Shown: positions 15,688-17,121 of the stretch, piece by piece | Layout of the letters: the number at the start of each line of letters is the position of its first letter | How positions within the stretch are numbered: position 1 is the stretch's first letter | Source: Marivita sp. | GTDB lineage: Bacteria > Pseudomonadota > Alphaproteobacteria > Rhodobacterales > Rhodobacteraceae | Assembly: GCF_965656765.1 (NCBI RefSeq) | Contig: NZ_CBFHLV010000006.1 | Span: 21,195 to 85,194, forward strand | Direction: 5' to 3' | DNA: 64,000 nt | Notes under the pieces: model-generated | What the model saw: the letters and a program-made list of their open reading frames with translations, nothing else | Told to the model about the DNA's origin: nothing | The model's database searches: none | Made by a program: the position numbers and the translations under genes

Positions 15688-17121
15688 ATGACCATCTGGC
15701 TGACCAACACCGCCACCCGCACCAAAGAGGAATTCACCCCTCTCGATCCGAATAACGTACGGATGTATGTCTGCGGGCCCACCGTCTATGACCGTGCGCA
15801 TCTGGGCAATGCGCGCCCGGTGATCGTGTTCGACGTGCTCTACCGTCTGCTGCGCCATGTCTATGGTGCGGATCACGTCACGTATGTGCGCAACTTCACC
15901 GACGTTGACGATCGGATCAACGAGACGGCGCAAAAGCGCCGCGCGGCAGGGGCGGACGGAATGCTTGAAGATCTGATCCGCGAACGCTCGGACGAGACGA
16001 TCAGCTGGTATCACGCCGACATGGACGCGCTTGGTGCGCTGCGTCCCGATCATGAACCCCGCGCGACCCAATATATCGACCAGATGATCGCGTTCATCGA
16101 AGACCTGATCGCCAAAGGCCACGCCTATGCCGCCGAGGGTCATGCGCTCTTCGCGGTCGATAGCTGGCCCGAAGGCTACGGCAAACTGTCCGGTCGGTCG
16201 GTAGACGACATGATCGCCGGTGCGCGGGTCGAGGTGGCGCCCTACAAGCGCAATCCGATGGATTTTGTGCTCTGGAAGCCGTCAACCGATGATCTGCCTG
16301 GATGGGACAGCCCGTGGGGTCGAGGCCGCCCCGGCTGGCACATCGAATGCTCTGCCATGGCGCACGAGTTGTTGGGCGATACGTTTGACATCCACGGCGG
16401 CGGCAATGACCTGATGTTCCCGCACCACGAGAACGAGATCGCGCAGTCTAAATGCGCAGGCCATGGCTTTGCCCGCTACTGGCTACACAACGAGATGTTG
16501 CAGGTCGAGGGCAAGAAGATGTCGAAAAGCCTGGGCAATTTCTTCACCGTGCGGGATTTGCTGGACGGCAATTGGAGCGGTGGTTGGAAAGTACCGGGTG
16601 AAGTGATCCGGTTTGTCTTCCTCTCGACACACTATCGTAAGCCAATGGATTGGACTGCTGAGAAAGCTGAGCAAGCCAAAGATACCTTGGAAAAATGGGC
16701 GCTTTTCACAAAAGACGTCAAAGCATCTGACACTATACCTTCAAAGCTAGTCGAGATGCTATCGAATGATCTCAACACTCCCGGCGCGATCGCTGAGCTA
16801 CATAGGATCAGTAACAGTGGTGAATATGGAGACCTCAAATCTGCCTTGAAATTCCTATCTTTGGAACTGGCTCTGAGTGAAACTAACGCTGACGTTTTCG
16901 ACCGTTTAGTTGAGGGTGAAACGGTACGACCTTTGATCGAAGCGTTAATCCAAGAAATGCAACGGGCTCGCGAAGAGAAGAACTATATTCGATCAGATGA
17001 AATTCGCGATGCCTTCAAAGAGGCAGGTGTTTCGGTTCGCTTCGAAAAGGGCGGTGAAATCGTTTACAAGCGCGAAGCGGATTTCCATTTGGCACCACTT
17101 GAAAGTGTTGCTTCAAAATGA
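15688..17121 (+). CDS. cysS: Cysteine--tRNA ligase
   Basis: [15 protein letters not shown] (HIGH-like), [36 protein letters not shown]. Confidence 0.98.

Follow-up and report, generated by a model that had tools for sequence, protein, structure and literature searches.

A mosaic cysS in Marivita: probable recombinational exchange of the tRNA-binding end of an essential cysteine–tRNA ligase at a recurrent junction

The gene cysS of a metagenome-assembled genome (MAG) of Marivita sp. encodes the cysteine–tRNA ligase (cysteinyl-tRNA synthetase, CysRS) and is a mosaic, its 3′ third having a different history from the rest of the gene. It occupies positions 15688–17121 on the forward strand of a 64,000-nucleotide stretch of contig NZ_CBFHLV010000006.1 (assembly GCF_965656765.1, contig positions 21,195 to 85,194), which we call the window and whose numbering is used throughout. 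We consider it very probable that the gene is a recombinant, that its tail was swapped by a double crossover at a recurrent hotspot, and that the resulting chimera is functional. An earlier reading of the window's letters (the original prediction) had already proposed a mosaic cysS. This view is upheld as a whole: the trees of the two gene parts disagree, common descent does not explain the distribution of the tail among close relatives, and the junction is not an assembly chimera. It requires refinement in three respects, namely the site of the 3′ crossover, the donor, and the weight given to base composition.

The product of cysS (477 aa, one open reading frame) scores 375 bits against the Pfam family tRNA-synt_1e (cut-off 27), and its alignment with E. 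coli CysRS (1LI5) spans residues 5–450 (E 3e-106). The HIGH and KMSKS signature motifs are represented by HLGN at residues 38–41 and KMSKS at 277–281. Residues C29, C221, H246 and E250, invariant in an alignment of 62 CysRS sequences, correspond to C28, C209, H234 and E238 of 1LI5, which we take to be the zinc- and cysteine-binding residues of the E. coli enzyme. The frame stays open for all 477 codons, and the C-terminal landmarks noticed previously (residues 360–371 and 427–441) align with those of 1LI5. A search of the genome returned a single cysS in the assembly (G000; 3.43 Mb, 133 contigs, 92% complete). An aminotransferase gene lies upstream on the opposite strand.

The mosaic structure emerges from a comparison with 19 other Marivita species, in which the core was defined as residues 1–290 and the tail as residues 311–477. 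The core of G000 shares 84–98% of its amino acids with all of them (96–98% with the nearest loci, L002–L006), whereas the tail shares 31–40%, with the exception of the genome G023 (83%). DNA identity to loci L003–L007 is about 90% up to position ~16550, drops to 25–45% as far as 17115, and returns to 70–90% from the stop codon into the downstream gene cimA. Because this block of divergence is bounded on both sides, the replaced segment lies wholly within the 3′ end of the gene. Breakpoint detection by MaxChi and by sliding identity profiles agrees in placing a breakpoint inside cysS, with MaxChi chi-square values of 330–530, whereas 500 permutations gave no value above 20.

Several segments can be distinguished along the forward strand. 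The native Marivita core (15688–16515), comprising the Rossmann fold and the connective peptide (CP) domain up to KMSKS, has 61% GC and a G+C content at third codon positions (GC3) of ~0.75; it is 96–98% identical in amino acids and ~90% in DNA to L003–L006, and its synonymous divergence (dS) is 0.36–0.54. It is followed by the 5′ junction zone (16516–16569), running from KMSKS, whose codons differ from those of the relatives, to the start of an insertion; the GC change point falls beside it, at ~16513. The six-residue loop insertion NWSGGW (residues 295–300, 16570–16587), which the original prediction had singled out as unusual, belongs to the stem-contact (SC) fold and accompanies the tail lineage of G000. 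This tail class, shared by G000, G023 and G043, is hereafter called type C. The imported tail itself (16570–17118) takes in what is left of the SC fold together with the helical anticodon-binding bundle and the C-terminal alpha/beta domain, and has 46% GC, a GC3 of 0.43, and ~36% amino acid and 25–45% DNA identity to congeners. Within it lies a strongly conserved stretch of 21 residues (16591–16653), with 73–83% DNA identity against ~90% upstream. The stop codon (17119–17121) forms the 3′ junction: an alignment with nine Marivita loci is conserved from the cysS stop onward, regardless of the type of tail that precedes it.

Separate phylogenies of the N- and C-terminal regions tell incongruent histories. 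In the core tree, G000 falls within a Marivita clade alongside L002–L007 and G043 (labelled P0002), and in the tail tree it joins G023, P0002 and P0004 in a clade with 100% support, separate from the main Marivita tails. With 99% support, this type-C clade falls among tails from Tropicimonas, Marivivens and unnamed Paracoccaceae. Congruence fails the approximately unbiased (AU) test whichever part is used: the tail data are incompatible with the core clade (p = 1.4e-8 and 4e-4), as are the core data with the tail clade (p = 2e-7 and 2e-45).

This incongruence bears directly on the idea that the tail diverged in place, by accelerated evolution under relaxed or positive selection and AT-biased mutation, with no transfer involved. 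Tails do evolve faster and have lower GC3 throughout the order, and their Pfam matches are weak everywhere, as such a scenario would have it. However, the tail groups with those of other genera; tail synonymous sites are saturated in the very gene pairs whose cores differ by a dS of 0.07–0.5; and the same tail is found on cores that are 82% identical, while different tails are found on cores that are 100% identical. The ratio of nonsynonymous to synonymous change (omega) is 0.083 in the tail against ~0.05–0.064 in the core, which indicates a tail under purifying selection rather than one released from it. In-place divergence is, in our judgement, scarcely credible.

The type-C tail is carried by three of 28 Marivita species genomes (G000, G023 and G043), and each switches to it at a different point. 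In G000 the KMSKS codons read TCG-AAA-AGC, where all relatives, G023 included, have TCC-AAG-TCN. G023 switches at ~16565, at the insertion, and G043 at ~16655, retaining the canonical DQG and DWTEKK. The NWSGGW insertion is present in G000, G023, P0004, P0005/L022, L026 and L033 and absent from G043, where the junction lies downstream of it. Core and tail divergences are likewise discordant: for G000 and G023 the core dS is 0.41 and the tail dS 1.25, and for G023 and G043 the values are 0.74 and 0.30. Three different 5′ junctions together with this discordance imply that the type-C tail has moved more than once, and, with only G023 and G043 among the 27 other Marivita genomes carrying it, they refute vertical sharing of a low-GC tail by close relatives. 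In P0004, a tail 100% identical to that of G023 is joined to a core that is only 82% identical.

The cleanest pair is G023 (locus L002) and G017 (locus L006), whose DNA is 99–100% identical from −1400 to +587 of cysS, with a core dS of 0.07; beyond +587 identity declines through 96, 92 and 89%, after which the tail is saturated. As the exchanged tract starts in Marivita-like core sequence (89–96% over ~300 bp), its immediate donor would have been Marivita-like as well. The near-identity of some 2 kb across two species may itself reflect either a very recent transfer or a misplaced contig (contamination of G023 is 5%). Upstream of the gene (window ~14200–15480) the Marivita genomes show a break in synteny: the aminotransferase is present in G000, G007, G008 and G043, and unrelated sequence lies upstream of the cysS leader in G023, G017, G018 and G001 (30–45% identity beyond ~−200).

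A mosaic found in a MAG could also be a metagenome assembly or binning chimera, here one joined through a conserved stretch of 13 residues. The three carriers are all MAG-like, the junction does lie in a very conserved stretch, and P0004, with its other core and G023-identical tail, might be an artefact of this kind. However, the flanks of the G000 tail are Marivita-like on both sides, the downstream element and cimA included, so that assembly would have had to switch templates twice within 560 bp. The tail also occurs in three independent assemblies with differing junctions, in one of them on a 330-kb contig, and the same pattern is seen in the complete genome G007 (one contig) and in cultured Primorskyibacter type strains. 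An assembly artefact is therefore extremely improbable.

Beyond the type-C carriers, the suggestion that the cysS–cimA junction is an allele-swapping hotspot is borne out genus-wide, as several tail classes ignore core relationships. Loci L006 and L020 have cores 82% and tails 76% identical and have an insertion in common; for L003 and L004 the figures are 98% in the core and 62% in the tail, and their breakpoint lies close to the equivalent of position 16906. Across Marivita, core and tail identities are uncorrelated (rho 0.04), whereas one half of cimA correlates with the other at a rho of 0.68. At least one further genus breaks at the same place: between two type strains, those of Primorskyibacter marinus and P. 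flagellatus, the core is 98% and the tail 36% identical (core dS 0.41 and nonsynonymous divergence, dN, 0.009; tail saturated, dN 0.73), which marks the junction as a recurrent hotspot. The junctions of this pair and of G043 fall just past the conserved stretch at 16591–16653, which, judging from the alignments, is a frequent crossover arm in other lineages. Core/tail discordance in Roseovarius, Tropicimonas, Actibacterium and Paracoccus is suggestive and less clean. The literature searched contained no description of recurrent cysS tail swapping or mosaicism.

Two further features of Marivita cysS genes were observed. The cores form two classes, ~84% identical and distinguished by a 9-residue indel at residues ~75–105 (window ~15910–16000); the core tree does not pair them as sister groups, and the core may thus have a mixed history as well. 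At locus L019 (genome G011), cysS encodes 555 aa, with an insertion of ~90 aa separating the helical bundle from the C-terminal domain; its tail has a GC3 of 0.40 and the longest branch in the tail tree.

The compositional step from which the original prediction set out is real, and its counts were exact: 291 of 480 bases are G or C (60.6%) at 15721–16200 and 223 of 480 (46.5%) at 16621–17100. The shift coincides with KMSKS (16516–16530), the maximum-likelihood change point lying at ~16513. GC3 in 40-codon windows falls along the gene from 0.72–0.82 to 0.40–0.50, averaging ~0.75 in the core and ~0.43 in the tail of G000. Overall the genome has 57.2% GC, and 480-bp windows at or below 46.5% make up 0.21% of 14,089. 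The rare codons CTA (four), ATA (one), AGG (one) and TTA (two) account for 8 of 167 codons in the tail against 1 of 275 in the core, and codon typicality, with 2,645 windows from long open reading frames of the genome as the reference, has a z of −2.3 in the tail and +1.9 in the core.

A number of points count against a tail swap or restrict what can be drawn from it, and the first concern this very composition. In 94 Rhodobacterales cysS genes, GC3 of the tail minus that of the core averages −0.14 (sd 0.11); the value for G000, −0.32, is the second most extreme and lies near the edge of the order-wide distribution, not beyond it. Since tails are lower in GC3 than cores throughout the order, composition alone is no proof of foreign origin. 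The drop taken as the sign of a low-GC donor is thus confirmed as a drop, and its value as evidence is smaller than had been assumed. Moreover, the tails of G000, G023 and G043 hold a GC3 of 0.43–0.46 despite a tail dS of up to 1.5, so recent import followed by amelioration is an insufficient account; low GC is a stable trait of the type-C allele class, beyond any signal of fresh import. The other points concern sampling and sources. The 5′ junction of G000, which has no near-identical core relative, is bracketed only to ~16,513–16,570; the mosaic of this 92%-complete MAG is known from assembled sequence; P0004, for which no contig is recorded, may itself be chimeric through assembly and deserves little weight; and the 80 non-Marivita loci compared were selected for the highest tail similarity to the query and are not independent of one another. 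When 185,579 species genomes were scanned for the tail, the best match outside Marivita was 47% identical, and an exhaustive HMMER search of 1.84 billion representative proteins gave nothing closer than 48%, the latter being a weaker test because its library collapses full-length CysRS into few clusters.

Within Marivita, the isolated, rarer tails tend to have a larger GC3 deficit (rho 0.48, p = 0.03), a weak trend over 20 non-independent loci. Reduced GC-biased conversion of rare alleles would fit this trend, and so would repeated import from AT-richer sources.

Where, then, did the tail come from? A word-indexed search of 5.8 billion proteins with residues 325–477 gave four clusters of at least 81% identity, three of them Marivita and one P0004. 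The nearest tails outside Marivita are 43–48% identical, and only G023, G043 and P0004 reach 81%. Of the proposal that the tail had been replaced in frame by a foreign homolog, the in-frame replacement holds, and no foreign donor was found, these searches showing no source above 48% outside Marivita. From these sequence comparisons, the immediate donors were probably other Marivita or Marivita-like cells. The competing view, direct import from a distant, low-GC donor outside the genus, disputes only the donor and leaves recombination as it is. It would explain a tail GC3 of 0.43 beside a core GC3 of 0.75, the nesting of the tail clade among Tropicimonas, Marivivens and unnamed Paracoccaceae, the occurrence of NWSGGW elsewhere in Silicimonas and Paracoccaceae MAGs, and the persistence of low GC3 over a tail dS of 1.2–1.5, as expected of sequence long resident in an AT-richer background. 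On the other hand, it is at odds with the 48% ceiling and with the Marivita-like opening of the G023/G017 tract, and low tail GC3 is a general property that calls for no special source. We regard such a distant donor as possible, if clearly the less probable of the two sources.

For an exchange among Marivita-like cells, the genomic setting provides what homologous recombination would need. An intergenic element of 187 bp (17122–17308, forward strand) separates cysS from cimA; it is conserved over all Marivita tail types, occurs as a single copy in G000 rather than as a dispersed repeat, and may be viewed as the 3′ homology arm. GC-rich hairpins are predicted at 17145–17163 and 17173–17189, together with long-range pairing, and the element had no match in Rfam. 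The cimA-like gene that follows (17309–18928, forward strand; citramalate/2-isopropylmalate synthase family) is 86–92% identical in amino acids across Marivita, and its DNA is uniformly 75–93% identical. The survey of the cysS–cimA gap showed that in 86 of 91 Rhodobacterales loci cysS is immediately followed by cimA, and the cysS core is 75–100% identical in amino acids across the order, so both homology arms are supplied order-wide.

We propose that a double crossover (gene conversion) would have swapped the segment from ~16,516/16,570 to 17,118 for a deeply divergent allele. The 5′ crossover would have taken place in the very conserved coding stretch that starts at KMSKS, and the 3′ crossover in the conserved intergenic hairpin element and cimA. 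The original prediction had suggested, as a possibility, recombination between the conserved 5′ part of cysS and cimA; recombination is retained, with the 3′ crossover at the stop codon and intergenic element and not necessarily in cimA. The type-C tail would then be one of several allele classes shuffled among Marivita species.

Site-specific integration offers another route to the same result: as with icd and the element e14, a phage or island might have inserted at the 3′ end of cysS, brought its own tail, and later been deleted. This would account for a low-GC, divergent tail whose limit is precisely the stop codon, and for the recurrent use of one site. A 173-nt segment, 100% identical in the cysS 3′ ends of G002 and G015 (L015:2819–2991 and L018), could be taken in the same sense, as a module that takes over the gene end and the intergenic element. 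However, no integrase or element adjoins the 3′ end of cysS in G000, where the 187 bp of conserved intergenic sequence lead straight into cimA, the neighbour of cysS in nearly all loci surveyed. No displaced canonical tail was recovered from this 92%-complete genome (tblastn with 19 other Marivita tails found the resident tail only), and the tail had no match in 50,697 phage records. Plasmid matches were limited to the cysS of a Paracoccus chromid (28%). The carriers' junctions vary, unlike a fixed att site. Surrogate integration is accordingly very improbable, and from the presence of both arms, the lack of element, remnant or phage, and the variable junctions, we infer homologous recombination instead.

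As for the vehicle, an open frame of 1129 aa in G000 contains an RcGTA-type GTA_TIM domain (PF13547, 492 bits; G000:C61:803–1690, L102), a match that indicates a putative gene transfer agent (GTA) structural cluster in this genome. It makes GTA-mediated transfer of short fragments plausible, and the vehicle was possibly GTA particles or transformation.

Other observations relate to these sequences. In the G002 and G015 genes, the 173-nt segment adds a C-terminal extension of 56 aa (PIESIKTVYARANQ...KRQFLS), the intergenic element is gone, and the cysS stop overlaps the cimA start; no homologue of the extension was found in G000. The intergenic element, where present, may serve as a terminator/attenuator or as a processing site in a cysS–cimA operon. 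Additional cysS-like genes exist in G017 (G017:C61:900–2297; 68% identity, full length) and in G023 (G023:C176:1027–1959; 50% identity over residues 6–334). Gene conversion from such a second paralogue is ruled out as the origin of the type-C tail, as G000 has a single copy and the tails of the extra copies in G017 and G023 are unrelated to it (35% identity, or no match).

The chimera appears to be a complete CysRS with an intact fold. The AlphaFold2 (AF2) model has a mean predicted local distance difference test (pLDDT) score of 92 and a predicted template modelling (pTM) score of 0.84, with a well-folded tail, and the structure that it matches best, over the full length, is the E. coli CysRS–tRNA(Cys) complex 1U0B (TM 0.73–0.75). 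NWSGGW forms a loop in the model between helices 288–293 and 304–312. The tail domains score weakly against Pfam (DALR_2 17.9–20.9 bits, cut-off 22; CysS_C 19.8–21.6 bits, cut-off 23), similarly to canonical Marivita tails. R428, Y433, D437 and R440 correspond to E. coli R427, W432, D436 and R439, presumably the anticodon-contact residues of that enzyme. All CysRS tails read the same GCA anticodon, so tails should be interchangeable and a chimera tolerated; the enzyme is predicted to charge tRNA-Cys, and the tails would be functionally equivalent. ARAGORN reports 32 tRNA genes in the 92%-complete G000 assembly, none of them tRNA-Cys.

On a more speculative note, Rhodobacterales CysRS tails might be ancient allele classes that predate the genera, kept by balancing or frequency-dependent selection (for example through docking of a phage protein, toxin or antagonist) and shuffled as cassettes that fit between the conserved core and the cysS–cimA intergenic arm, perhaps by GTAs. 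We hold this to be rather unlikely. If true, low GC3 would mark rare alleles that escape GC-biased gene conversion, and an essential enzyme of translation would contain a hypervariable, exchangeable module.

Aminoacyl-tRNA synthetases, often chosen as phylogenetic markers, are textbook examples of core genes passed on by vertical descent. Given the exchange described here, whole cysS is unsuitable as a marker or as part of concatenated Rhodobacterales trees. Our results also raise the questions of how alleles of ~65% divergence coexist in one genus despite a single invariant anticodon, why the tails are systematically AT-rich, and what role GTAs play in short-tract exchange. At the same time, the locus offers a natural series of chimeras in which the mutual tolerance of the catalytic and tRNA-binding modules of CysRS can be studied.

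The classic mosaic housekeeping genes formed by interspecies homologous recombination are the pbp genes of Streptococcus and Neisseria. Like them, cysS has a sharply delimited divergent block in an otherwise near-identical essential gene, crossovers in conserved flanks, occurrence in several backgrounds, and incongruent trees. Unlike them, it is not linked to any known selective agent of the antibiotic kind and has no identifiable donor species; its block corresponds to one entire structural module, the anticodon-binding tail, with the stop codon as its precise end, and its alleles differ by ~65% at the protein level, far above the divergence of pbp alleles. The 3′ end of icd in E. coli is replaced through integration of e14 or phage 21, a process that leaves a prophage and the displaced 3′ fragment behind and uses a fixed att site. 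cysS resembles this case in the in-frame substitution of the 3′ end of an essential gene by a divergent copy, with a step in composition and divergence near the end, and differs from it in having no element, integrase or remnant, and in its variable junctions.

Among the synthetases themselves, the closest likeness is GluRS2, a class I enzyme whose catalytic and anticodon-binding domains are of different origin (Dasgupta and Basu 2014, BMC Evol Biol 14:26, PMC3927822). GluRS2 is reportedly an ancient, fixed paralogue chimera with changed tRNA specificity, built from domains of distant phyla. By contrast, cysS is, as far as its sequence indicates, a single and essential gene of presumably unchanged specificity, and its exchange appears to be recent and recurrent and to have left polymorphism within a genus. 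Neither mosaic essential genes nor chimeric synthetases are new as kinds, and the mechanism proposed for cysS is an ordinary one; what sets the case apart is the combination of a single essential CysRS as the target, a protein divergence of ~65% within one genus, and recurrence at one junction.

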